From Escherichia phage vB_EcoM_EC001, in sequence record MN445185.1: 64,000 bases of DNA. The stretch is one strand, 5' to 3'. The notes below the pieces were generated by a model. The model searched no databases, was not told the origin of the DNA, and saw nothing but the letters and a program-made list of their open reading frames with translations. Shown here piece after piece: positions 644 through 64,000 of this stretch. Position 1 is the first letter of the stretch. Every line of letters begins with the position of its first letter. The position numbers were made by a program, and so were the translations under genes.

Positions 644-2748
644 TGGCGGGTCGTTCTGTACACGTGCGTGATTTGCGTATGCTTAACTCTGATCAGGTGT
701 GGAAACTACGCGGGCGTTATTACGTGACATTCGACGATGGTAAGTCGTTGGAAATGTCTAGTCGCCACATCAAACTCAGCTGGCCGTATTGGGGTGTGTC
801 GCGTCTGTATCCGCAGGTGCCCACTCCATCGACCATGGCGTATCGTCCAGGTCAGGTAGCAACAGATGACCTGCATCTGGACTTTATGTCGGAAGCAGCG
901 GTACTGGCCCGTAAAGCAGGTGTCGACCTTGCTGAAACGCGTTATATCCTGAGTCAACATGTCTACGCCGATGCGTTCAACATGACAGTGAAGAACCTGC
1001 TGTCCTATTGCACGACAATCGACTTTGATACGATGATGGAGATCTACGACCATCCGAACTTCGAACTCATCCGTCAGTGGGAAGTGCAATATCCTACTGG
1101 CTACGATGAAGATGGTCGGGATATGGTTGAAGAAGCGTACAAGCTTATCGAGAAAATCTTCAAAGACCCTGCGCTACGGTATAACCCGGTCGTGATGTCG
1201 GTACTGGATGGTACTGTGAAGATGAACCAGGTACTGCAAGCCTTCGTGCGTGGTAAAACGTCAGAAATTGACTCACGTGTATACACCAATCAGGTGTGGG
1301 AAGGCTTCTTTACCGGAATGCATTCGGTTATTTCGCGTTTGAAAGAATCTGGTGCAACTTCACGTTCCCACTTGTACAACACTGACAAGATTGCCGAAGC
1401 AGAATACGCCTCACGTAAACTGCAGCTGGCAGCAAACGTACTGATGTATTTCACGTACGACGACTGCGGTACAACTCACGCACACCGCTACACGTTTAAG
1501 GATACGCAGCTGGATGAGCGTGCCTATAAAGCGATGGTGGGGATGCGTTATCGTTTAGAAGGTGATAATGGTCCGTGGTTGAGATTTGAGAAAGGTGGAT
1601 ACGCAGACCTGGTTGGCAAACCGCTGGTCTTCCGTAGTGCCATGACCTGTAAAGAGATGGCGAATCAGTCCATCTGTGCGACCTGTATGGGGGATTTGAT
1701 TTATAACCTCTCTGAAGGTACGTCACCAGGTCATCTGGCATCCACGTCCATCTCGGAAAAGGGTACACAGGGAATTCTCTCTACCAAGCACCTTGACTTC
1801 TTGCGTTATCTGCTCAACCTGGTACTCACCCCACGTATGCGTGAGTATATGACCGAATACAAACATAACTCTCTGAAAGGGTTGTGCTTGCTGCCAAAAC
1901 CACAGCGTGGGAATTGGTCAGAATACGAGTTGGTTGTTACCGACAAAGTTTATTCGGAGCTGAGCCAGATTGCGTATCATGAAGATCTCGATGCAATTGA
2001 TGAAACGGCATTACCAGAAATCACCGACTTAACTTTCCAACGTCGTTTAGAAGATGGGCAGATAATCGCTGCGGATTCTATCGATGTGCGAATGGGTGTT
2101 TGTGGGAACTTCTCTAAACCGTTCCTGCACTACTTCTTGAAACAACGAGCGAACATTCGTATCGAGAAGAAGACGGTTCAGATTCCTTTGAAAGGATGGA
2201 ACCCGAAACACCCGGTCCTGGTCTACACCAACCGTTCTGAATCGATGGCGGAGTTCGTAGCCGGCTTAGAAACCAAGCTCCGTTCGATTGCTGCCGATAA
2301 GAACGAAGACATTGTGGAAATCATCAACACAGCCTCGACTGTGAAGCTGAACAAGAAACAAGGTCGTGTGAAACCGGTGACGTTGGTTGAAATGGGTGGT
2401 GCTACAGAGAAACAGTGTACTTATGCGTTGATGGACACGTTTAAGTATATCCAGCGTAAGCTGAGTGGTATACCGATGACGCACATTGCGATTATGTTGG
2501 CGATATCTCGTGTAGAGTCGCCAACCAATCCGTTCCCGGCAGTAGGATTTGACAGTGAGGATTCTACTAATGCCACCGGGAAACGGTTTGTCGATCACAA
2601 CACGCTCATTAGTTTGCGCTCGGCAATTCCGATGTTGTTGTTTGAAGGACAGCAGGGGAATATCGATCGCGTTGGTTTTTATACCGAGTACAAAATCCCG
2701 GCATCGTTGTACGATGACCTAGGAGCCGCTGTGGTAATTGAGTTGTAA
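643..2748 (+). CDS. hypothetical protein (701 aa)
   Basis: Long ORF, GGAGGA SD at 631-636, translationally coupled to upstream ORF, followed by intrinsic terminator; no motif recognised. Confidence 0.8.
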   Translation: MAGRSVHVRDLRMLNSDQVWKLRGRYYVTFDDGKSLEMSSRHIKLSWPYWGVSRLYPQVPTPSTMAYRPGQVATDDLHLDFMSEAAVLARKAGVDLAETRYILSQHVYADAFNMTVKNLLSYCTTIDFDTMMEIYDHPNFELIRQWEVQYPTGYDEDGRDMVEEAYKLIEKIFKDPALRYNPVVMSVLDGTVKMNQVLQAFVRGKTSEIDSRVYTNQVWEGFFTGMHSVISRLKESGATSRSHLYNTDKIAEAEYASRKLQLAANVLMYFTYDDCGTTHAHRYTFKDTQLDERAYKAMVGMRYRLEGDNGPWLRFEKGGYADLVGKPLVFRSAMTCKEMANQSICATCMGDLIYNLSEGTSPGHLASTSISEKGTQGILSTKHLDFLRYLLNLVLTPRMREYMTEYKHNSLKGLCLLPKPQRGNWSEYELVVTDKVYSELSQIAYHEDLDAIDETALPEITDLTFQRRLEDGQIIAADSIDVRMGVCGNFSKPFLHYFLKQRANIRIEKKTVQIPLKGWNPKHPVLVYTNRSESMAEFVAGLETKLRSIAADKNEDIVEIINTASTVKLNKKQGRVKPVTLVEMGGATEKQCTYALMDTFKYIQRKLSGIPMTHIAIMLAISRVESPTNPFPAVGFDSEDSTNATGKRFVDHNTLISLRSAIPMLLFEGQQGNIDRVGFYTEYKIPASLYDDLGAAVVIEL

Positions 2749-2751
2749 ACC

Positions 2752-2777
2752 GAGGGGCCTTGCGCCCCTCTTTTTTT
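2752..2777 (+). terminator. rho-independent terminator
   Basis: GC stem GAGGGGC/GCCCCTC followed by T7 run, directly after stop 2746-2748. Confidence 0.8.
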
Positions 2778-2794
2778 GTGCGAAGAGGGGCAGC

Positions 2795-5539
2795 ATGGTA
2801 GAAATTCAAATGACTTACACGAGTATGGGGGTACGGGTTGAAGTCCCTATCCGCCAGGCTGAAAGGGCCATACTCGCGTGGGCCGAAGAGAATATGCACG
2901 CCCCAAAGATGGGCAAGCAACATGGACGAATAACTACGGAACGCGGTGACGCGTACTACGCCCACATTCCGTCTTTAAGGACGTTCATTTTCCATAAAGT
3001 GTTCGCTGAGAAGATTAAACATATCCTCCAACGAGCAGCAATTGAATATGCTTTTCAGTACAAGCTTACAGAGCACCATCCTGAGCGAGGAACACCTTAC
3101 TGCTGTACATTTGATAACTACGGCTTCTCGATGGTAGAAAGCGATCCGGAGTCGCGTTTCTACTATCAGAACGAGGTTGTGGATGCAGCGTCCGATCCAA
3201 ACCGACCACAGACAATCTTTGCCATTCAGACAGGGAGAGGAAAATGCTGTGCTCATGGTACGCGTGTGCGTGTACCGGGTGGTTGGAAGAACATTGAGGA
3301 TATACAGCTAGGTGATTACGTTACGGGGCGTGACGGAAAACCAGCAATGGTCTCTGGAGTGTTCCCACAGGGTGTGGTTGACCTGTATCAGGTGACGTTT
3401 TGGGATGGTAGGAGTGTTGACGTATGTGGCGAGCACTTGTGGCAAAGCTACTACGTTAATACCACCGAGAATCGTCGCTGGGGTGTACGTGATACCCTAG
3501 AGATGAAACGTTTAATTTCGATGCCTAATCCACGGGTATACATCCCATTACCAGAACCAGAGGAAATGCCAGCTAAGGATTTTGTCATTCATCCGTATTT
3601 ACTCGGTATCCTCTTGGGTGATGGCTCCCTATCGATGCCTGGTGTTTTATACACCAAAGGCGATGTGGAGATTCGTGACCGTGTTGCTGAGGTCATGCCC
3701 GCTGGACATGCAATCCATGATTCATCGTACAGCGATGGGATAACGAAGTGCATCTCTTGTCCCGGCGGTGTTAACCTTGTCCGCAGAGAGCTTGAGCGGT
3801 TAGGGTTAATTGGCTGCAGGTCTTGGGAAAAGTTCATACCTGGAGATTACTTCGAAACGTCCATCGAACAACGGTGGGAGTTGTTGCGTGGCTTGATGGA
3901 TACTGACGGTACTGTGGATAAGGATGGTGGTACGCCTTCTTTCTGTTCCACCAGTAAAGAATTGGCTTTAGGTGTTCAGGAACTTGTGCGGTCTTTAGGA
4001 GGGATTGCAACACTACGCGAGAAACGTCCGTTCTTCACACACAACGGCGAACGTCGTGAAGGTCGTTTGGCTTATAACGTCTCCATCCGCCACAAAACAC
4101 CATCGAAACTGTTCCACCTTCCAAGGAAGAAAGAACTGTGTCGTGATAACGGACAATACACCGATATACTGAAACTCCGTGTTAAGTCTATCGAACCCAT
4201 TGGTCGTGATCTTGCCACGTGTATTCGTGTCGAGAACGACGATGCGTTGTTTGTGGTGGACAAGTGGATCGTTACGCACAACACCAAGACCTGTATGAAG
4301 TCGATGGTTAAACGGGGAACCCGTACCGCATTGATTCACCGTCCGTCGTACGTTCCCAAATGGCTGTTTGACGTCTGTGATGATGAAACAGGACTTCGTA
4401 TACTTCGTGACGAGGTGTTAGTTTGTACAGGCGTACAGGCGATTTACGACGCGCTGGAGATGGGTAAGTCGGGAGAGCTAGATAGTCGTGGTATTAAGGT
4501 AATAATCCTCCCCACGGTCTCTCTACAGCGTTTCCTGAAGGAGTACATTAACACTGCTGCGACTAACCCTGTGGACCTGGATACGTTTTATGATGTTCTG
4601 GGTGTGGGTCTGGTGGCGATGGATGAGGTGCACGAGCATTTTCACCTCGTTTACATGGCTGGTATAATGTTGAACCCTCCGGCATCGATAGAGATGTCTG
4701 CAACCCTTAAGCCGGGTAGCAGTAAAGCCTTTATCGCGGAGCGGTATTTAGAACGTTTCCCAATGGAGTACCGAATCAGTATTCCAATCATTCCGGTGGT
4801 TGACGTGAAGGCGTTGTACTATCGACTGGATGATAAGAAGTTTGCGTGGTGGGCGTCGAAGATGACGCCGTATAACCACAAGCTCTTCGAAGGGAAGCTG
4901 ATTAAAGAGAACTTGCATTTAGAATACGCGAACATGATCTGGGATGTGGTTGAGAAATCGTTCCTTAAACGGTATCAACCTGGCCAAAAATGTTTGATAC
5001 TCTTTGCTACGGTAGCGATGTGTGAGTTCTTTACCGAGTATGTGAAAGATAAGTTATCGCGTGACCCTGTATTCCATCCGTTGATGGTGGCGAAATATAA
5101 TGCAGGCGATTCGTATGACGACTTTATCCAAGCAGACTTCTCTATCTCCACACCGGGGAAAGCGGGGACTGCGGTCGATAAACCTGGGTTGGTACACATG
5201 TACATTTCAACCCCGGTAGAAGACCAGCAACTGAACGAACAGATGGCCGGTCGTCCACGTAAGATTCTCCACAACGAATGGGGTGAAATAGACCCAACGG
5301 TGTGGTTATTCCATGCGTATAACGTACCGAAGCATTGCAATTACCTGAATGCCCGCCAGAAATCACTCAAGGATGTCGTATTGTCGTTCCGTATCGCGAC
5401 ATCCCCCTACGTTGTAAGGAAATCACATGCTCACTCCGCCGCGTCCAGCAGAGCCGCTGCCACCCTACATCGGAATGACTTTAGCAAGTTTTCTCGAAAA
5501 CGTTCTAAAGGCGTATCCCGGCGTAGAAGACGTCGCTAA
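2795..5539 (+). CDS. SF2 DExH-box helicase interrupted by an intein (914 codons, about 568 aa after splicing)
   Basis: Motif I AIQTGRGK|T restored after intein removal, motif II VAMDEVHE, motif III MSATL, motif VI QMAGRPRK; ATG 2795 with GAGGGG SD; the track start 2738 is a TTG inside the upstream gene. Confidence 0.75.
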   Translation: MVEIQMTYTSMGVRVEVPIRQAERAILAWAEENMHAPKMGKQHGRITTERGDAYYAHIPSLRTFIFHKVFAEKIKHILQRAAIEYAFQYKLTEHHPERGTPYCCTFDNYGFSMVESDPESRFYYQNEVVDAASDPNRPQTIFAIQTGRGKCCAHGTRVRVPGGWKNIEDIQLGDYVTGRDGKPAMVSGVFPQGVVDLYQVTFWDGRSVDVCGEHLWQSYYVNTTENRRWGVRDTLEMKRLISMPNPRVYIPLPEPEEMPAKDFVIHPYLLGILLGDGSLSMPGVLYTKGDVEIRDRVAEVMPAGHAIHDSSYSDGITKCISCPGGVNLVRRELERLGLIGCRSWEKFIPGDYFETSIEQRWELLRGLMDTDGTVDKDGGTPSFCSTSKELALGVQELVRSLGGIATLREKRPFFTHNGERREGRLAYNVSIRHKTPSKLFHLPRKKELCRDNGQYTDILKLRVKSIEPIGRDLATCIRVENDDALFVVDKWIVTHNTKTCMKSMVKRGTRTALIHRPSYVPKWLFDVCDDETGLRILRDEVLVCTGVQAIYDALEMGKSGELDSRGIKVIILPTVSLQRFLKEYINTAATNPVDLDTFYDVLGVGLVAMDEVHEHFHLVYMAGIMLNPPASIEMSATLKPGSSKAFIAERYLERFPMEYRISIPIIPVVDVKALYYRLDDKKFAWWASKMTPYNHKLFEGKLIKENLHLEYANMIWDVVEKSFLKRYQPGQKCLILFATVAMCEFFTEYVKDKLSRDPVFHPLMVAKYNAGDSYDDFIQADFSISTPGKAGTAVDKPGLVHMYISTPVEDQQLNEQMAGRPRKILHNEWGEIDPTVWLFHAYNVPKHCNYLNARQKSLKDVVLSFRIATSPYVVRKSHAHSAASSRAAATLHRNDFSKFSRKRSKGVSRRRRRR
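3245..4282 (+). mobile_element. intein with LAGLIDADG homing-endonuclease domain (346 aa)
   Basis: In-frame insert begins with Cys right after GRGK, ends VTHN followed by Thr; two LAGLIDADG-type motifs LLGILLGDGSL and LLRGLMDTDGTV. Confidence 0.75.
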
Positions 5540-11103: not shown

Positions 11104-11604
11104 ATGACTAAGAAAGACACTACTACCCTTGACCCGCGTACAGAAGGCGTGGTCCGTGATAGCGCTTCTTACAGCAACGACGACCAATATCGTGTTAAAC
11201 TGATCACCACGATGCTCGATGAAGCAGGTAACAATGCCGGTCCACGCAAAGCATCTGGTACCCAGGCTGAGAAAGATGCGTATAATAAGCTGCATCACTC
11301 TTTCCGTGAGCTGTTTAAACTGCGCGGTCAGGCCTTCCTGGACGGTTTCTACGCCTTCGTAGAAGCGGCTAATAAGCATCGTAACGGTATTTTCTACGCA
11401 CCGGCTGCTAATAACCGTATCAGTGAGAACTTCCCGAATCGCGACGAGCGTGAAGTCTTCGTTATCTTTATTAACATGCTGATTCGTTACGCACGTTGCG
11501 CCGACAAAGGCCGTTTCCGTGATACCAACGATGTTGACCGTCTGGCTCGTCGCTTGAACGACCCGGACCTGCGTTCGCTGGTTATGCACGCCTTTGGCGG
11601 TTAA
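11104..11604 (+). CDS. hypothetical protein (166 aa)
   Basis: ATG 11104 just after upstream stop (the track start 11029 would overlap it); followed by terminator. Confidence 0.65.
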   Translation: MTKKDTTTLDPRTEGVVRDSASYSNDDQYRVKLITTMLDEAGNNAGPRKASGTQAEKDAYNKLHHSFRELFKLRGQAFLDGFYAFVEAANKHRNGIFYAPAANNRISENFPNRDEREVFVIFINMLIRYARCADKGRFRDTNDVDRLARRLNDPDLRSLVMHAFGG

Positions 11605-24037: not shown

Positions 24038-24082
24038 ATGGCAAACTTTGTAAAAAGTAAACTCGCCCGCGAGTCCGTTGAA
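24038..24082 (+). repeat. direct repeat, copy 1 (5' ends of the paralogous genes)
   Basis: First 29 nt identical to 25393..25421, then synonymous differences. Confidence 0.8.
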
Positions 24083-25315
24083 GCTACCGGCGACGTAATC
24101 GACGGTCTGAGCAACGTTGAACCGGCAGAAGAGAACATCGACGTTCAGCTGGCAGAAGTTGCGTCTATCGACGGTCAGCTGGAACAGCTCGATGGTGACC
24201 AGGAAACCCTGGCTGCTGATACCGAGCGTACCGAAGCTGCTATCGACGCTGCTGACGAAAAAATCGAAAACGGTGAAGAGATGCCTGAAGAAGCCATCGC
24301 TCACACCGAAGTGGCGCAGGAATCTATCCGTAAGCGTTGGGCTATCGATCGTACCAAACTGGCACGCGAATCTTATCGCCGCGGCCGTGGCATGACCAAA
24401 GCAGCTCAGGAAGGCTGGAAAGAAACCCTGAAAGATCTGTTCAAGCGCTTCGTTGAACTGTGTAAAGCAGTTATCGCGAAAGCGAAAGAGCTGAAGCTGA
24501 AATACATCAACGTTGGTAAGTCTGCACAGAAACGTGCGAAAGCTTACCAAGAGATGCTGCGTAAGCTCGGTAAGCAGAAGAAAGAAAACATCTCTGGCGG
24601 CTTTATTAGCAAACTGTCTATCGAAGGCGACTTCGATGTGGCCAACTCCATCGCTATCGCGAAAGAGCTGACCGGCGGTAAAGCGAAAGATGCTATCAAC
24701 AAGCTGTCCTCTCAGGCGGCTGACTCTGCCGTAGCGATCACCAAAACTGCAGAAGGTACTGCAACGGCTGCTAAAGGCGCCGTTGATGTTGCCCTGTTCG
24801 GTACCGCTGCTAAGAAACTGCGCACCCTGCCGCAGTTCGAAGATGGCGAAGGCGGTCAGAAAGTTCTGGCACTGCCAGGCAACGCCTATGTGCAGATCGG
24901 TAGCAAAACTCTGGCCGGCGGCCAGGAGTACACTGCGGTGGCGTTCCTGTCAACTGGCGACTCTACCGACACGAAAGAGATTGCTACCCCGGCAATTACC
25001 GCACTGGCGTCTGCAGCAACCGCTCTTGATGCGATCGGTAAAGGTTTCGAGAAAGTGCTGCAGGACTTCCGCTCCTATGACGCCGAAGTTGAGAAACTGG
25101 AGCAGGCTGCTAGCAAAGCTGCTGCTGCCCTGGATAAATCCAACGACGAAGGCGAGTGGGAAGCACTGCGTAATGCACGTACTGCAGCCGACCAGGCTGT
25201 GCGTAACTACCAGACTCTGAACCGTGCCGTGGCGCATGTTGGTAACACTGTTATCAGCGGCCTGAACGGTTACATCGGTGCTGGTATCGGCGCGTACGAA
25301 AAGTCTAAAGCTTAA
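24038..25315 (+). CDS. abundant virion protein candidate, paralog A (425 aa)
   Basis: Strong codon bias; acidic N-terminal region; repeated A-Q-E motifs; paralogous to 25393..26652. Confidence 0.8.
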   Translation: MANFVKSKLARESVEATGDVIDGLSNVEPAEENIDVQLAEVASIDGQLEQLDGDQETLAADTERTEAAIDAADEKIENGEEMPEEAIAHTEVAQESIRKRWAIDRTKLARESYRRGRGMTKAAQEGWKETLKDLFKRFVELCKAVIAKAKELKLKYINVGKSAQKRAKAYQEMLRKLGKQKKENISGGFISKLSIEGDFDVANSIAIAKELTGGKAKDAINKLSSQAADSAVAITKTAEGTATAAKGAVDVALFGTAAKKLRTLPQFEDGEGGQKVLALPGNAYVQIGSKTLAGGQEYTAVAFLSTGDSTDTKEIATPAITALASAATALDAIGKGFEKVLQDFRSYDAEVEKLEQAASKAAAALDKSNDEGEWEALRNARTAADQAVRNYQTLNRAVAHVGNTVISGLNGYIGAGIGAYEKSKA

Positions 25316-25392: not shown

Positions 25393-25437
25393 ATGGCAAA
25401 CTTTGTAAAAAGTAAACTCGCTCGTGAATCTGTCGAA
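25393..25437 (+). repeat. direct repeat, copy 2
   Basis: See copy 1. Confidence 0.8.
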
Positions 25438-26652
25438 GGCGCAGGCACTGTCGTTCCAGATGGTATCGAGCTGCCGGCTGAGTCCGTGGAAGGTACTCTG
25501 GCTGACATCGAGCATGACACCAAACCGATCGACCAGCTGGACGCAGAAGCAGACGTGCTGGCAGAAGACGGTGACGAAACTGATGCACAGCTGGATGCAG
25601 TTGATGCTGCTGAAGCTGCCGCTGACGGTGAAGGTGAAGATGGCGAAGAGCCAATGGAAGTGGAAGAAGATATGCCTGACGATGCTGCTGAGCAGCTGGA
25701 CGTTGCGCAGGAATCTATCCGTAAACGTTGGGCATTCGACCACCGCGTAAGCGTTGCGCAGGAATCTTACGGTGCACGTAAGCGTCGTCAGGTTGCTCGT
25801 GAAAGCCTGTGGGAAGATATCAAAGCCTTCCTGAAGCGCATCTACGAGTGGCTGAAAGAGCAGGGCCGTAAAATCAAAGATCGCTGGCTCAAGTTCAGCA
25901 ACCAGGGTAAATCCATTCAGGCGCGTGCTAAGAAATATGACGCTGCGCTGTCTGGCCTGGGCAAGCAGAAGAAAGACACCGTTTCCGGTGGCTTCATCAA
26001 GAACCTGACCTCTAACGGCAAGTTCCTGGGTGACAACCTGCAGGTGCTGAAAGAGCTGCTGGCTAACATCGGTGGCGTTTACAGCATGCAAGAAGACGTC
26101 GTTCGTGAAGCAACTGTAATGGTAACTTCTATTGAGTCTGGCAAACACGTTGGCGGTTTCGCTGCAGCGGTTAATAAAGCAGTTTCTGGTAAGTCCGGCG
26201 ATCTGCAGCTGCTGGGCAACCAGATCGGTAAAGCTGACGTTAAAGTCAACGGTGACGACCTGGAAGCATCCTTCACTGTTATCGATGCAGAAGGCAGCGT
26301 AGAGCAGTCCGTAGCGACTCCTTCTCTGACCACCCTGAGTGGTCTGGTGGCGTTCTTCAATCAGCTGGGTAAAGCTGTGGAAGAAAACGTGAAAGCGTAC
26401 CACAAGAACAACCAGGCGCAAGAGAAGTACGAGCAGGCTATTGACAAGCTGCTGAAGCGTATCGACAGCGTGAAGATCGACGACAACGCCGAGCTGACCA
26501 ACAACGTACGTGTTGCTCGCCGTGCTATCACCATCGCGAACCAGTTCGTTTCCTGGACCGAACGTTGCGTTGCAACTGGCCAGAAAAACCTGATCGCCGG
26601 TGTTAACGGCTACATCAGCGCCGGTATCGGTGCTTATGAAAAGGCTAAGTAA
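25393..26652 (+). CDS. abundant virion protein candidate, paralog B (419 aa)
   Basis: Same N-terminus MANFVKSKLARESVE, shared VAQESIRKRW and C-terminal GYIxAGIGAYEK; AGAGGA SD. Confidence 0.8.
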   Translation: MANFVKSKLARESVEGAGTVVPDGIELPAESVEGTLADIEHDTKPIDQLDAEADVLAEDGDETDAQLDAVDAAEAAADGEGEDGEEPMEVEEDMPDDAAEQLDVAQESIRKRWAFDHRVSVAQESYGARKRRQVARESLWEDIKAFLKRIYEWLKEQGRKIKDRWLKFSNQGKSIQARAKKYDAALSGLGKQKKDTVSGGFIKNLTSNGKFLGDNLQVLKELLANIGGVYSMQEDVVREATVMVTSIESGKHVGGFAAAVNKAVSGKSGDLQLLGNQIGKADVKVNGDDLEASFTVIDAEGSVEQSVATPSLTTLSGLVAFFNQLGKAVEENVKAYHKNNQAQEKYEQAIDKLLKRIDSVKIDDNAELTNNVRVARRAITIANQFVSWTERCVATGQKNLIAGVNGYISAGIGAYEKAK

Positions 26653-26720: not shown

Positions 26721-26746
26721 ATTTCAGATATATATTACCTAGGTGA
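26721..26746 (+). promoter_or_regulatory. phage promoter-like motif, class I (ATTTCAGATATATATTACCTAGGTGA)
   Basis: 26/26 identical to 35839..35864; just downstream of a terminator, 43 nt before ATG 26789. Confidence 0.6.
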
Positions 26747-39752: not shown

Positions 39753-40277
39753 ATGCAAATTCGTTTTAGTCCACCGTGGGAAGTTCAATCTAACATAGAT
39801 AAAGGGGCTGGCGTTAAAAAGTTGGAGGAACTCCAAGCAAGCTTCTTTAACTGGTTATATGACTGCTCGTCGGGCTTTAGTTCCATCATACTGCCAGTGA
39901 GTGACCCTATTTCGATTTATAAATCGATTATGGCACCACCTGCACTTCCGACTCTTTATTATGACCAGGTCTTAAACCTGGTTGAGAAAGGTACGAATGA
40001 AACCCTTGCTGATTTATATGGGGAATCATTCGACGGTCGTTTACGTTGGGTGTTCTCACAACGTGGCGATGTTGTTGTGGCGTCTTTTGCAGAAGCTAAA
40101 TCCGGACCGGGTTTTTCTTTAAGTGAAGACCACGCTGCGAAAAAGATGTTCTGCGCAGAACTTTTTAAATATATGCGTCCCAAGACTCGTGTCGTGGATG
40201 ATACGTTCAGTACGTCGACGCAGTTTGCTGCGCACGAAGTGCTGACGCAGTTGTACGCATGTCATTTATCTAAATAA
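39753..40277 (+). CDS. hypothetical protein (174 aa)
   Basis: ATG 39753 is 14 bp from the divergent minus-strand start; the track start 39699 overlaps that gene. Confidence 0.65.
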   Translation: MQIRFSPPWEVQSNIDKGAGVKKLEELQASFFNWLYDCSSGFSSIILPVSDPISIYKSIMAPPALPTLYYDQVLNLVEKGTNETLADLYGESFDGRLRWVFSQRGDVVVASFAEAKSGPGFSLSEDHAAKKMFCAELFKYMRPKTRVVDDTFSTSTQFAAHEVLTQLYACHLSK

Positions 40278-40289
40278 GGTAAACTTGAA

Positions 40290-42590
40290 ATGAAAGATAC
40301 CCGTATCGCTAGTCTGGACCAGCTGGTTCAGCAGGGCAATGCTCTGGTCGCTGCTGCCAAGGCAGGCTCTTCCGCTAATGACGTATGGCAAACCGTAGCC
40401 GTTGGCGAATCTGTACGTAAAAATGCTGCCGGCTTCACCAACCTGCGTGACACTGCTCAGCAGCACTACGAAGCTGTAAACCCTGGCAAAACCATGAGCC
40501 ACGCTGCTCAGGTTGCTTCTGCGATGATTCTGGCTGCTGCCGGTCACGAAGACGACTTCATGACCCGTGTTGCTGCCGAGAGCGCGAAGCCGGAATACGC
40601 CAGCTACATGCCGATCGCTATTTCTGGTGCAGCATCTCTGGCTGCTGACTACGGTAAAACTCCGCTGGTCGCAACTGAATACTACACCAACAAAGACCTG
40701 GACAAAAACCTGGGTCTGACCTGGACGCTGAACGTGCGTGCTCTGGAAACTCAATCCAAGTTTGCAGAAACCCTGTTCCCGACCATCACTGTGGACACCA
40801 ACGACGTCGGCATCACCGTTCGTACCAAAGTTACTACTGTATCTCGTGGTATCCTGAACGCCCTGCTGACCAAAGACGTGGTTGAAGACAACCGTCAGCC
40901 GCTGCATAACGCGCTGTCTAACCACAAAGTCCTGCAGGACGATGCTATCCGTATCGTACCTTACGTGATGGAAACCGGTGAGAACGCGAAGTTCTTCGTA
41001 TCCGAAGACATCATCGAAAACGAAAACGTTCAGCTGGGTCGTGTGCCGGCGTATCCGACCAACTACCTGAGCTTCTCTGAACGTCGTCTGAACCTGTTCC
41101 AGCTGTCTGCCCATCCGGGTATCGTGCAGGAAGGTTACGATGAAACCGACGAAATCGCACCGGGTGCAGCGCTGGGTAGCCTGCTGCTGTCTGTGCGTAA
41201 GCCGACTGAAGAAGCGAAAGATGGCGCGCTGATCAAACTGAACGTACGCGACATGCAGTTCGCTACCTTCCAGCGTCCTCCTGAAGGTGATGGCCGTGAG
41301 CTGGTCCTGCAGTTCCGTCGCACTGTGTTCTCCCTGAACGCCAAGTCTCTGGACTGGAAAGGTGCTGAAATCCCGGCACTGGCCGCTCTGGCACAGAACG
41401 ATTACACCATTCGTTATTCCATGAACATCAGCATGTCTCTGTTCACCAACGGTCAGTTCTCTGGTCGTGTTGACGTGACTGCACCGTCTCTGGAAATCGA
41501 AGGTCTGTACGACGCAACTGGTACTGCTGTTGATATCGAAAGCGGCACCGGTAAAGTTATCATCGACAACCTGAAACTGGAGCTGCTGGGCTGGCGCTTC
41601 GACGGTACTCGTACCAACGAGAACCGGAGAACCCAGGGCCTTCTGCTCGACCCGATTTGGGAACAAGAGAACTACAAACTGCAGTACGGTTCTCCGATCA
41701 TGACCAAATCTCCGGTTGGCGTTGAATACGACGACACCGAACGTCTGGACGACCTCGTTTCTGCGGTTAACATCCGTAACGAAATGCTGGCTATCACTCA
41801 GACTCTGTCTTACACCGAAGCGGTTAAGAACGCAGCTGCGTCCATGATCACTCCGTGGGACAAACCTGCTATCCGCGGCCTGGGCCGTCACTGGGTTGCT
41901 CCGTGGTACAGCGAAAGCGACTACGAAGTGGACAAAGTGATCCAGTCTCTGGATACCAAAGATGCGCTCATCAACGCCCGTCAGGGTCTGGTACAGCGTA
42001 TCGGCGACCAGGTAACTCGTGCTATCCAGGATTCTCGTTTCATGCCGGCTCTGCGCCTGCTGACTGCGGACCCGAACGCACTGCCGAAAGTTGTTATCGC
42101 AACTGACGAACCGACTGCTGCAATGCTGCTGCTGGTTCAGGGTGACCAGCGTCTGCTGGGCGATCGCTACGAGTACGAAGTTATCACCACCAACGATGAC
42201 CGCTGGCGTGTGAAGAACGAAGCTGACGGCAGCTGGACTCGCCGCCTGCAGTGGGTTCTGAAAGTTCCAACCGCTGATGACGGTTCTTACTGTGTTCTGA
42301 ACTGGGGTAACCACTTCTGGTCTCCGATCATGGTAACCAACATCAACATCCAGCGTAACGGCGCTACCAGCAAAGAGCTGGCAGTACAGCCTCGTAACGC
42401 GCACATCTGCCACTGCCCGATCACTGGTCTGATCTGGATTAAAGGTATCACCAAGTTCGTGGAAGAGAAACTGGCGTTCAACGTCACTACTACTTCCAAC
42501 GGTACTGGCGGTACTAATGGCGGTAATGCGGGTGATGTTGGCGGCGGCGCTACCCAGCCAGGTACTGGCGGTGAAGGCGCTGGCGGCTAA
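40290..42590 (+). CDS. abundant virion structural protein, candidate major capsid protein (766 aa)
   Basis: Strongest codon bias in the window; size typical of jumbo-phage capsid proteins; Gly-rich C-terminal tail; strong terminator downstream. Confidence 0.6.
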   Translation: MKDTRIASLDQLVQQGNALVAAAKAGSSANDVWQTVAVGESVRKNAAGFTNLRDTAQQHYEAVNPGKTMSHAAQVASAMILAAAGHEDDFMTRVAAESAKPEYASYMPIAISGAASLAADYGKTPLVATEYYTNKDLDKNLGLTWTLNVRALETQSKFAETLFPTITVDTNDVGITVRTKVTTVSRGILNALLTKDVVEDNRQPLHNALSNHKVLQDDAIRIVPYVMETGENAKFFVSEDIIENENVQLGRVPAYPTNYLSFSERRLNLFQLSAHPGIVQEGYDETDEIAPGAALGSLLLSVRKPTEEAKDGALIKLNVRDMQFATFQRPPEGDGRELVLQFRRTVFSLNAKSLDWKGAEIPALAALAQNDYTIRYSMNISMSLFTNGQFSGRVDVTAPSLEIEGLYDATGTAVDIESGTGKVIIDNLKLELLGWRFDGTRTNENRRTQGLLLDPIWEQENYKLQYGSPIMTKSPVGVEYDDTERLDDLVSAVNIRNEMLAITQTLSYTEAVKNAAASMITPWDKPAIRGLGRHWVAPWYSESDYEVDKVIQSLDTKDALINARQGLVQRIGDQVTRAIQDSRFMPALRLLTADPNALPKVVIATDEPTAAMLLLVQGDQRLLGDRYEYEVITTNDDRWRVKNEADGSWTRRLQWVLKVPTADDGSYCVLNWGNHFWSPIMVTNINIQRNGATSKELAVQPRNAHICHCPITGLIWIKGITKFVEEKLAFNVTTTSNGTGGTNGGNAGDVGGGATQPGTGGEGAGG

Positions 42591-42620
42591 TAATCCGTAA
42601 GGATTACGTTGCCTAAGATT

Positions 42621-42659
42621 AGCTTACTCCCTTCGGGGAGTAAGCTTTTTCTTTTTTTC
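42621..42659 (+). terminator. rho-independent terminator
   Basis: AGCTTACTCCC-TTCG-GGGAGTAAGCT hairpin then long T-run. Confidence 0.85.
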
Positions 42660-42670
42660 TAAAAATTTAT

Positions 42671-42693
42671 AGATAGATATTATCTTAGGGAGA
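42671..42693 (+). promoter_or_regulatory. phage promoter-like motif, class II (AGATAGATATTATCTTAGGGAGA)
   Basis: Related copies at 42869 and 63176; directly downstream of a terminator. Confidence 0.6.
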
Positions 42694-42725: not shown

Positions 42726-42809
42726 ATGGAAGTCAATTTAGAGAGATCAAGACTAGTTGCACCGATGTTTGATGGGCGCGGTTTTATGGCGAACGGTCAC
42801 CACGTTTGA
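42726..42809 (+). CDS. possible leader peptide (27 aa)
   Basis: TAAGGAGA SD 6 nt upstream; sits between two promoter motifs and is followed by a hairpin. Confidence 0.3.
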   Translation: MEVNLERSRLVAPMFDGRGFMANGHHV

Positions 42810-59536: not shown

Positions 59537-60670
59537 ATGTCGACGCTCGATTTAGATTTAGAAGTCCTGACTGACGACTACGATCGCCTGGTCGCACTCG
59601 AAGGTCTGGGAGTTAAGCCCGACTTCCCTGCGGTTTGCGCGATTCGTCAGCGTTGGTGCTTAACCGACGACGGTGAAGATATGTTGGTTGCTCGTGAATC
59701 GCGTGAAGCGATGGAGCGTGCTCAGTTTATGACTGATACCGACCCGCGAGCTGGTATCCATCGCGCAGCAGGGCGCATTACTGCGAAGGCTGTTAAAGGC
59801 GCTGGAAAGTTAGTGGGTGCTGGACTAGGTGCAACCGCAAAGGGTGCGGGTAAACTTTCGAAAAAGCTCGCATTACGCTTTTACGATTTCGCGGAAGCGC
59901 TAGCGAAAGAACAAGCCGACCGTTTGAAAGAAATAACTTCGAAAGCTGCTTTCATGGAACGTAAGCTCAATAAGCTTAAAACGCGAATGTCGCTGCTAGA
60001 TGAGCACAAAACACTCGCTGCAGTTGACGTTCACACTAGCAGCTGGACGTCTAAAATTTGTTTTGAAGATCGACCCGATTTTGAAGCGTGTGTTCGGTTT
60101 TCTAAACAAACAAATGCGTACGAAGGCGTCGTGCAAAAGTACACGGTTTACACACGCACTGCTCTGAAGAAAAGCAAAGCATTCGAAGGGCCGGGCTTAA
60201 AACAAATCAGCAAGTCCACAAACTGGGCAGTTAAGCGTGCCGCTGGATTGCTTGGCATCATCGATCCCTTTAAAAAGGTGGAAGCTTTTCCTGTTCCTGG
60301 AAATATCGTTGTGGTTGAGCACCATAGTGGTAAGATCAGTTGGGCAATTGCGCGTGACGGCGATTATGGTGAAACCATTAAATCGCTGGATATGCATCAG
60401 TGTGGGAAAGCAATAGAGGCTGTGGAAGCACTTATCAAATCTATTGCTGCGCGCGGAACAAAGAACCGTGTTGTAGGCTACACTGGTATCTACGAAGAAG
60501 TGGAAGCGATGAAGTCCGAGCTTAAGAACCTGGAAGGGGATGAGCTGAAAGAAGCCACTTTGCGCTACCGCAATGCAATGGCGATGGAAGACGCTTTTAC
60601 CACGGCATTGGTACGTGTGGCGGAGGGTCTAATGGAATGGACGAAGCAATCGCTGGCCGAGGTGAACTGA
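59537..60670 (+). CDS. hypothetical protein (377 aa)
   Basis: AAGGAG SD. Confidence 0.7.
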   Translation: MSTLDLDLEVLTDDYDRLVALEGLGVKPDFPAVCAIRQRWCLTDDGEDMLVARESREAMERAQFMTDTDPRAGIHRAAGRITAKAVKGAGKLVGAGLGATAKGAGKLSKKLALRFYDFAEALAKEQADRLKEITSKAAFMERKLNKLKTRMSLLDEHKTLAAVDVHTSSWTSKICFEDRPDFEACVRFSKQTNAYEGVVQKYTVYTRTALKKSKAFEGPGLKQISKSTNWAVKRAAGLLGIIDPFKKVEAFPVPGNIVVVEHHSGKISWAIARDGDYGETIKSLDMHQCGKAIEAVEALIKSIAARGTKNRVVGYTGIYEEVEAMKSELKNLEGDELKEATLRYRNAMAMEDAFTTALVRVAEGLMEWTKQSLAEVN

Positions 60671-61131
60671 TGAAGATTATTACCATAGTGGGGCCAGACA
60701 CGGCTAACGGCAGGAAATATTCCACAGATATCCTCGCGCTTTATAACGAGCTGGACAAAAGCGAAATAGAAAGCTATCGAAAAGAGACGGGTATTAATGT
60801 CCGTTTTACGCCGGCTAAATCGTTAGCCGAGCGCTTCCGGGGTCGTTTACTGGCGGTCGTGGACGACGGTGTCTTGTATGGCTTTGCGCAATACCGCACG
60901 ATGACTGAAGAGGGTGTGACGATGATGTCGGTATCCTCACTGGTCGTTAGCAGCAGCGCACGTGGTAAAGGTTACGGCACCGCGTTGATGGATGCGGTAA
61001 AGAAATCCGCAACGGAAAAAGGGTGTACAGTTGTTCACCTGTCCGTGAACGCCGGTAACGCTGCCGCGAAGTCGCTCTACGACAAAGCTGGCTTTAAGGT
61101 AGGTGCTTACCAGATGTATTGGAGGGTGTGA
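60670..61131 (+). CDS. GNAT family N-acetyltransferase, tandem paralog 1 (153 aa)
   Basis: Motif A ARGKGYGTALMDAV and motif B NAGNAAAKSLYDKAGF; TGATG coupling. Confidence 0.7.
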   Translation: MKIITIVGPDTANGRKYSTDILALYNELDKSEIESYRKETGINVRFTPAKSLAERFRGRLLAVVDDGVLYGFAQYRTMTEEGVTMMSVSSLVVSSSARGKGYGTALMDAVKKSATEKGCTVVHLSVNAGNAAAKSLYDKAGFKVGAYQMYWRV

Positions 61132-61595
61132 TGAAAATTGTTTTTGTCACCAAGCCCAACTCTCCGTATGGAAAGAAATACTACGCGGACTTGTTAGGAC
61201 TACACAACAAGTTATACGACGATCAGAAAATAAAACTTGCCGACTTAAACGGTCGTGAAGGGTTTAATCAAATCTCAAAACTGGAGGAGGTTTGGGGTGA
61301 AGGTACGCTGTGCGCTTGCGCCGTTGATGACCGTGGTGTGGCTGTTGGTTTCATCACCTTTGGCTACACCAAAAAGGGACAACGTTTCCTCTGGGTATAT
61401 AACTTTTTTGTAGATGAATCGGTTCGTTCACAAGGCGTTGGCCATGAACTGATCGAAGCCGTAGAGAACTATGGCAAATCAAAAGGCTGCGCATGGATGC
61501 AGCTTAACGTGCTCGGTAATAACGACCGTGCTATTGCGTTTTATGAACGTTTCGGATTCCGAACTGAATACCAGGATATGGTAAAGGAGCTTTAA
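61131..61595 (+). CDS. GNAT family N-acetyltransferase, tandem paralog 2 (154 aa)
   Basis: Motif A RSQGVGHELIEAV and motif B NNDRAIAFYERFGF; GGAGGG SD; N-terminus parallels paralog 1. Confidence 0.7.
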   Translation: MKIVFVTKPNSPYGKKYYADLLGLHNKLYDDQKIKLADLNGREGFNQISKLEEVWGEGTLCACAVDDRGVAVGFITFGYTKKGQRFLWVYNFFVDESVRSQGVGHELIEAVENYGKSKGCAWMQLNVLGNNDRAIAFYERFGFRTEYQDMVKEL

Positions 61596-63233: not shown

Positions 63234-63291
63234 GAAGCCGTTGTGAGTCGGTTAAAACTCACCAACTTAAACTTAAAAGCGAGTAAACAAA

Positions 63292-64000
63292 ATGTCAAAA
63301 CTCAATAAAGCAGCAACCAAAGAATGGCTTTCCGTACCTACCGCAGATGGTCAGTATCGCTACGTATTCACGTATGACGAAAATGACCTGACGGCAAAAG
63401 GTATTCCGCACATGTTAAGTCACAAACTGATTAACAGCGTGACCGGTGCCACCTTAGTAGGTTCCGGCGGAAGGACAATCTTTTGTGCCCCCAGTTGGGA
63501 TCAAACTGAACTGACCAAGAAAATGCTCGGTGAACTCCGGGCGGTTTCCGCACGTCTGTTCTTTAAGCTGATTGCCAGAAAACCGGCGCTATGGGATGCA
63601 TGGTCTCAACACAATCTCGAGGCATTGCGTGGGGAGTGTCTGAATTACGTATTGGTCGAAGAAGTGATTGATAACTTCTTCGCTAACGTGATGAAAACCG
63701 AACGACTGCGTAAGCCGAACACCGACGGTTATTCGTTTGTCTCCGTTAAGAGCAGCGAACTGATTCGGGGTGAGTTTGCAGGGCATGTCCTTTCGGTAAC
63801 TCGGAACCTGAGTTTCTTTGGCCAGCCTTTCAGTGAGCCAGTTGTTCAGGTAACTTATGATTTCCGTTTACCGTTTACTGTTCGGAATGAGTTTGACCCA
63901 GGTCAAGTTTCGTTGAAGTTTTTATATCCTCTCCAGTCATGGCCGTTATTGAAGAGGTTCTTAGCTGAGCCCCGTGTAGCTGCGGTGCTGCAAGCGTGGA
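63292..64000 (+). CDS. hypothetical protein, 3'-truncated by window edge (>=236 aa)
   Basis: ATG 63292; frame translated by hand to the window end with no stop; absent from the ORF track. Confidence 0.6.
   Translation, partial: MSKLNKAATKEWLSVPTADGQYRYVFTYDENDLTAKGIPHMLSHKLINSVTGATLVGSGGRTIFCAPSWDQTELTKKMLGELRAVSARLFFKLIARKPALWDAWSQHNLEALRGECLNYVLVEEVIDNFFANVMKTERLRKPNTDGYSFVSVKSSELIRGEFAGHVLSVTRNLSFFGQPFSEPVVQVTYDFRLPFTVRNEFDPGQVSLKFLYPLQSWPLLKRFLAEPRVAAVLQAW

Follow-up and report, generated by a model that had tools for sequence, protein, structure and literature searches.

The predicted phiKZ-type major capsid protein gene of Escherichia phage vB_EcoM_EC001 and the gene-length antisense open reading frame opposite it

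The DNA analyzed here, referred to as the window, is a stretch of 64,000 nucleotides from Escherichia phage vB_EcoM_EC001 (sequence record MN445185.1). The plus-strand gene at 40290..42590 (766 amino acids plus the stop codon) almost certainly encodes, as judged from homology, the major capsid protein (MCP), the phiKZ-type HK97-fold shell protein of an SPN3US-like (Seoulvirus) jumbo phage, and corresponds to gp75 of SPN3US (RefSeq ACQ60_gp191). The open reading frame (ORF) is present in the ORF list at these coordinates, and the proposal of an earlier note, made from the letters alone, that it is a candidate MCP gene is substantiated by profile matches, by near-identity to SPN3US gp75 and by matches to MCPs of solved structure. 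The sole Pfam match of the protein is PF25620 (PhiKZ_MCP, 'Bacteriophage PhiKZ major capsid protein gp120'), with E=2.1e-225 and a score of 750 bits where the cutoff is 27; residues 72-725 align with positions 2-634 of the 635 of the profile, a full-length match above the curated threshold. Likewise, phrog_3231 ('major head protein') is the only PHROG match, with E=3.7e-297 and residues 1-755 placed on positions 1-745 of 746. When 50,697 phage records were searched by tblastn, 204 contained a match to the 766-amino acid protein, 20 of them at 99% identity or above, with SPN3US at the top; in SPN3US the annotation of the matching gene reads major capsid or major head protein. The proteins share 765 of 766 residues (99.9%), S185T being the sole substitution, and their genes occupy the same position, so that the window gene is orthologous to an experimentally characterized member of the family. 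For practical purposes the window MCP and SPN3US gp75 are the same protein, and the gene is in this sense already known and experimentally characterized. The length, too, is in line with phiKZ-like capsid proteins, as the earlier note had held, with 766 amino acids here versus 747 for the phiKZ-type MCP. Nothing contradicting the assignment was found, and its importance beyond correct annotation is small.

A sequence search of the PDB returned four distinct chains, 11bt (E=5.8e-50), 36za (5.2e-49), 8bfl (5.9e-32) and 8y6v (1.2e-28), which jointly cover residues 68-735 of the query; every one carries the name major capsid or head protein, or gp120. 11BT, together with 11FG, 11MK and 11ML, corresponds to gp41 of the E. 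coli phage Goslar, which presents the canonical HK97 fold with an insertion (I) domain and a C-terminal arm (C-arm), and builds a T=27 capsid from 1,615 copies (bioRxiv 10.64898/2026.04.21.720040). 8Y6V is phiKZ gp120 and 8BFL/8BFP belong to the Klebsiella phage PhiKp24; phiKZ gp120 has the HK97 fold with the same domain map as the Goslar protein, and the PhiKp24 structure closely resembles that of phiKZ (PMC11297242). From the homology to these solved MCPs, extending over ~600 residues with E values from 6e-50 to 1e-28, we infer that the window MCP would adopt an HK97-type fold.

To place the domains, 14 MCPs were aligned and the boundaries of phiKZ gp120 (PMC11297242) were carried onto the window protein; at an identity to phiKZ of 21% the transferred boundaries are approximate. 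The phiKZ propeptide, residues 1-163, maps to residues 1-130, which would constitute the N-terminal propeptide (40290..40679, plus strand) and end in an A-T-E cleavage motif at residues 128-130 (nt 40671-40679, plus strand). The Glu of this motif shares its alignment column with the Glu preceding the mature N-terminus of phiKZ gp120 (residue 164) and is kept in 13 of the 14 aligned MCPs; the putative propeptide ends, then, in an A/S/G-X-E sequence where, by homology, phiKZ has its maturation site. The predicted shell-forming body of the mature protein (residues 131-718; 40680..42443, plus strand) would start with an N-arm at residues ~131-172, followed by the I domain at ~217-451 and by the P and A domains, of HK97-type fold, at ~464-718. 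The C-arm, residues ~719-751 by alignment, runs on into a tail rich in Gly, Thr and Asn, arm and tail together occupying 42444..42587 of the plus strand.

In SPN3US, gp75 is an 83.9-kDa precursor from which the gp245 prohead protease cuts off 130 N-terminal residues at an A-X-E motif, leaving 70.4 kDa, and in mass spectrometry of virions no other protein gave as many spectra (1,592) or as high an abundance index (PMC5694885). The number of gp75 copies has been put at 1,560 (PMC5694885) or 1,615 (PMC10052503), and the protein makes a T=27 shell (PMC5694885, PMC10052503, PMC7552025); this outer shell has been described as an embellishment of the HK97 prototype (PMC7552025). The abundance in virions anticipated by the earlier note for such a structural protein is borne out by the published SPN3US proteomics, where gp75 ranks first both in spectral count and in copy number (PMC5694885, PMC10052503). 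Cleavage, copy number and abundance are measurements made on SPN3US, from whose protein the window MCP differs by one amino acid. By analogy, we infer that the propeptide is cleaved in vB_EcoM_EC001 as well. In the model that we propose, ~1,600 copies of the MCP would assemble, as the near-identity to SPN3US gp75 suggests, into an icosahedral shell (T=27) built of hexamers and pentamers; the prohead protease would take off the first 130 residues after A-T-E during head maturation, and the mature protein of ~70 kDa would form the outer shell.

The MCP gene stands out from the rest of the window in its codon usage. Of the 65 annotated SPN3US genes, 64 were mapped onto the window, and two measures were computed for each, Wright's effective number of codons (ENC) and the fraction of codons that are host-optimal (Fop); the list of optimal codons behind Fop follows general E. 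coli/Salmonella usage, and ENC is independent of that list. No other gene among the 64 reaches the Fop of the MCP gene, 0.83. Its ENC is 33.0, a value undercut only by one ORF of 47 codons, a length at which ENC is unreliable, so that the claim of the strongest codon bias in the window stands. The medians for genes of at least 150 amino acids are 49.6 (ENC) and 0.53 (Fop). Codon choice in the MCP gene approaches exclusiveness: CTG accounts for 66 of 70 Leu codons and ATC for 36 of 41 Ile codons, and Gly is encoded solely by GGT and GGC. Among the long genes, the runners-up in bias are the two at 24038-25315 and 25393-26652 for internal head (ejection) proteins, equivalents of gp53 and gp54, whose SPN3US counterparts have been called highly abundant (PMC7552025). 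Codon bias thus tracks protein abundance.

A recent horizontal acquisition, or simply the local base composition, might also produce odd codon usage, and the G+C content does rise from ~0.49 in the rest of the window to 0.53 at 40001-42000, with a third-position value (GC3) of 0.60 for the MCP gene. We nevertheless consider a foreign origin very improbable as compared with selection for high expression. The bias is directed to specific host-preferred codons rather than to G or C as such: CGT is preferred over CGC and CGG, GGC does not outnumber GGT, TCT and ACT are common, and GGG, CCC and TCG do not occur. Moreover, the codon pattern recurs elsewhere in the window, in the genes of the other, likewise very abundant, head proteins, and the synteny of the MCP gene and its neighbours across many related genera argues for vertical inheritance.

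An intrinsic-terminator-like hairpin followed by a T-run lies at 42621..42658 of the plus strand, beginning 31 nt past the MCP stop codon. Its stem-loop (42621-42646) has 11 perfect pairs closed by a UUCG loop, and the T-run occupies 42647-42658. With a folding energy of -21.4 kcal/mol (z=-5.06), it is more stable than every one of 200 shuffled sequences. This arrangement of a GC-rich stem-loop and a U-tract downstream of the stop codon is that of an intrinsic terminator, and the predicted terminator is, as had been claimed, a strong one. We propose that heavy demand for the MCP late in infection would have driven the gene to the near-exclusive use of host-preferred codons, so much of the protein being needed at that stage.

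Opposite the MCP gene, the minus strand carries an ORF of 715 amino acids at 40266..42413, as the earlier note had described. This ORF is an artefact that encodes nothing. It lies in the codon-aligned reverse frame, in which antisense codons coincide exactly with the sense triplets, and stops can therefore arise only from the sense codons TTA, CTA and TCA. These are codons disfavoured in highly expressed enterobacterial genes, and long codon-aligned antisense ORFs opposite such genes are a familiar artefact of gene finding. None of the 766 codons of the MCP gene is TTA, CTA or TCA, which is why the frame is open. The stop-free stretch in fact reaches from 40269 to 42623 (785 codons); a TAA shortly before the MCP start closes it at one end, and another TAA (TTA on the plus strand, 42624-42626), inside the terminator stem, does so at the other. 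Stops number 27 and 44 in the two remaining antisense frames, and 29 and 42 in the two alternative frames of the sense strand.

A genuine minus-strand gene overlapping the MCP gene would be the alternative, and the length of the ORF (715 amino acids; 785 stop-free codons) speaks in its favour. Across the other 63 genes, 21.5% of the Leu codons are TTA or CTA, and 11.4% of the Ser codons are TCA. At this average usage 19.7 antisense stops would be expected, and the probability of finding none is 3e-10. The absence of the three codons from the MCP gene, however, opens the frame automatically, so that its length does not exceed what the sense codons predict, and other biased genes of the window show the same open antisense frame. 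The product has no match in Pfam or PHROG, it would be started from a GTG without an obvious Shine-Dalgarno sequence, and its amino acid composition reflects the codons favoured in the sense frame (V 14%, R 9%, Q 9% and F 8%; Lys occurs only 3 times and Met only twice).

Comparison with relatives makes a real antisense gene highly unlikely. The open frame is not kept: the same antisense frame contains one stop in pEa_SNUABM_29, pEa_SNUABM_43 and Machina, four in phiEaH2, five in Ea35-70, nine in Kwan and 47 in the phiKZ-type KTN4, and among relatives it is open only where TTA, CTA and TCA happen to be absent, for instance in Xoo-sp14, whose GC3 is high. Nor was purifying selection on the antisense product found. 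Of the 17 codon differences from SPN3US, 16 leave the sense residue as it is, and every one of these 16 alters the antisense residue. Antisense identity lies 2 percentage points under sense identity for SPN3US and 14-23 points under it for seven more distant relatives; in SPAsTU it is 75% versus 90%. Because synonymous sense changes alter antisense residues, and because antisense identity decays much faster than that of the sense protein, selection acts on the sense frame only. The view already taken in the earlier note, that the antisense ORF is a by-product of codon bias, is thus upheld by the codon alignment of the frame, the lack of TTA, CTA and TCA, the stops in relatives and the missing purifying selection.

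The records of two relatives carry small minus-strand 'hypothetical proteins' within the 5′ part of the MCP gene, which could be taken as a sign of a real gene there. In SEGD1 (KU726251; locus L002 coordinates) such an ORF is annotated at 1477-1758(-) beside a truncated MCP at 1735-3801(+), and in phiEaH2 (NC_019929; locus L006 coordinates) one is annotated at 800-913(-) beside a truncated MCP at 935-3010(+). In these records the MCP start is shifted 78 codons downstream; the small ORFs accompany wrongly truncated MCP starts and are annotation errors, probably caused by the antisense open frame.

Codon-aligned open antisense frames were also observed opposite other biased genes of the window, with 419 codons at 25393-26652, 304 at 24038-25315 and 166 at 11104-11604; the first two are the internal head (ejection) protein genes, and the third is a gene of 166 amino acids. 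These frames have the same cause as the one at the MCP gene and are not to be called genes. As compared with the familiar artefact, only the length of the MCP antisense frame, 785 codons, stands out, and this reflects the length of the gene. The antisense ORF should stay unannotated at this locus, which offers a clean worked example of how avoidance of TTA, CTA and TCA in a highly expressed gene generates a mirror ORF of gene length.

That the 766-amino acid protein is another abundant or large protein, such as the tail sheath or a non-structural protein, is practically negligible as an alternative to a capsid shell protein: no similarity of either kind was found in Pfam or PHROG, and nothing else was found in its support, whereas the only match in each of these databases is to PhiKZ_MCP or to the major head protein, the four PDB matches out of four are to major capsid or head proteins or to phiKZ gp120, and the tail sheath of SPN3US is encoded by a separate gene, gp256 (PMC5694885).

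The C-terminus of the MCP is a low-complexity tail rich in Gly, Thr and Asn (residues 731-766; nt 42480-42587, plus strand). Gly accounts for 15 of the last 36 residues, in agreement with the Gly-rich C-terminal tail noted earlier. All the SPN3US-like relatives examined, and Xoo-sp14 as well, end in a low-complexity tail rich in G, T, N, D and A that varies in sequence and length, and the ~40 residues ahead of it are almost invariant among relatives; the phiKZ-type MCP lacks a Gly-rich tail. Slippage-prone DNA repeats in the tail region were ruled out, Tandem Repeats Finder having reported no tandem repeats in it. In the phiKZ hexamer, the six C-arms form a central helix bundle, and at the pentamers the C-arm touches the outer decoration protein gp244 (PMC11297242). 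Since the tail extends the C-arm, which in phiKZ sits at the capsomer centre, it is probably a flexible, fast-evolving extension of that arm at the centres of the capsomers and, by the same analogy, probably emerges on the outside of the capsid. The fuller picture, that of a flexible, surface-exposed and rapidly evolving appendage displayed in ~1,600 copies per head, is considerably more doubtful and is put forward tentatively. Such a tail might form part of the 'central protrusion' that SPN3US hexamers are reported to bear, or play roles in adhesion or anti-recognition. The tail is the sole feature of this MCP that lacks a description in the literature consulted; for structural work on the capsid it is a fast-evolving, minor detail.

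The MCP gene is preceded by a small conserved gene of 174 amino acids (39753..40277, plus strand), the equivalent of SPN3US gp74, which has no Pfam match and ends 12 nt before the MCP start. Both genes are probably co-transcribed. The local order is a DnaB-like helicase gene (minus strand), the 174-amino acid ORF (plus), the MCP gene (plus) and then an ORF of ~334 amino acids. The MCP gene lies, as in SPN3US, between the helicase and gp74 genes on one side and the gp76 gene on the other. The succession helicase (minus), small ORF (plus) and MCP (plus) is kept in nine relatives: SEGD1, SPAsTU, pEa_SNUABM_29, phiEaH2, pEa_SNUABM_43, Machina, Kwan, CR5 and Derbicus.

The late-promoter consensus of phiKZ consists merely of TATG at the transcription start (PMC7618050). 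Several TATG sequences occur upstream of the MCP gene and within the gp74 equivalent, and with so short a consensus and so many occurrences no late promoter can be assigned to the MCP. A scan for sigma-70-type promoters gave only weak matches (9/12); SPN3US-like phages are, by analogy with phiKZ, probably independent of the host RNA polymerase, and the polymerase relevant at the MCP terminator is probably phage-encoded. A promoter-like motif, TTTCA-GATA(G/T)ATATTA(T/C)CT-(T)AGG, was observed in five copies in the window versus 0.22 expected, at 26727, 35845, 42672, 42870 and 63176, all intergenic and on the plus strand. It agrees with the predicted promoter consensus of phiKZ-like phages, given as TTTCARRYAKATATTATYWAAGTG for N1M2/OBP and as TATATTAC for phiKZ (PMC7058600 Table 2). 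Two of the copies, at 42672 and 42870, are located just downstream of the MCP terminator, and transcription of the downstream genes would therefore probably restart there.

Between the MCP terminator and gp76, just past the first of these two motifs, there is an ORF of 27 amino acids (42726-42809, plus strand) preceded by a good Shine-Dalgarno sequence (TAAGGAG). In SEGD1, the ORF starting at the same ATG is annotated with 232 amino acids (SEGD1_076). The 27- and 232-amino acid versions suggest frame differences or sequencing errors between the records.

Other observations concern genes away from the MCP locus. The DNA helicase gene at 2792-5539 (plus strand) encodes 915 amino acids, versus 569 in the SPN3US homolog ACQ60_gp230. 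The additional ~346 residues (~3232-4414) break the Walker A motif (..TGRGK|CCAHG...VTHN|TKT..), and in Pfam they match LAGLIDADG_3 (E=3e-10, above the cutoff) and Hom_end_hint (2e-6, below the cutoff). The insert looks like an intein with a LAGLIDADG homing endonuclease. It is common to Escherichia phage Lh1B (99.2%), SPLA3, SPLA5c and JN03, whereas SPN3US, SEGD1 and the SPFM phages among the matches listed lack it. At 60637-61131 (plus strand) there is an extra ORF of 164 amino acids for a GNAT acetyltransferase (Pfam Acetyltransf_1, E=2e-17), within a stretch of ~450 bp that has no SPN3US counterpart and directly upstream of the GNAT gene at 61119-61595, of which it looks like a tandem paralog. 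The last ~730 bp of the window (63274-64000) gave no blastn alignment to the collinear part of SPN3US.

Among known systems, SPN3US is by far the closest. The window aligns by blastn to ~29.8-93.8 kb of its genome at 97.5-98% DNA identity with a few indels, and on this alignment it is from a close Seoulvirus relative and not from SPN3US itself; it contains the intein-bearing helicase and the extra GNAT gene, both missing from SPN3US. The MCP itself shares with SPN3US gp75 (YP_009153369.1; NC_027402 70105-72405) its length, its gene neighbourhood, the A-T-E at residues 128-130 and the Gly-rich tail, and the two genes are told apart by the S185T substitution and 16 synonymous differences. Goslar gp41 (11BT/11FG/11MK/11ML), the best sequence match among the solved structures (E=6e-50, 173 bits), and the PhiKp24 MCP (8BFL/8BFP), the third-ranked one (E=6e-32, 114 bits), are distant relatives, and their alignments finish at about residue 735, short of the end of the Gly-rich tail. 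phiKZ gp120 (PDB 8Y6V), the founder of PF25620, belongs to the same family and is likewise placed in a T=27 capsid in the literature. It resembles the window MCP in its propeptide boundary, 163/164 aligning with 130/131, and in the order of N-arm, I domain, P and A domains and C-arm. It differs in its sequence (~21-23% identity), in its propeptide of 163 rather than 130 residues and in its C-arm, which stops at residue 747 without a Gly-rich extension. The phiKZ-type gene differs in its codons too, since its heavy use of CTA (43 codons) leaves it without the antisense ORF that the window gene displays.

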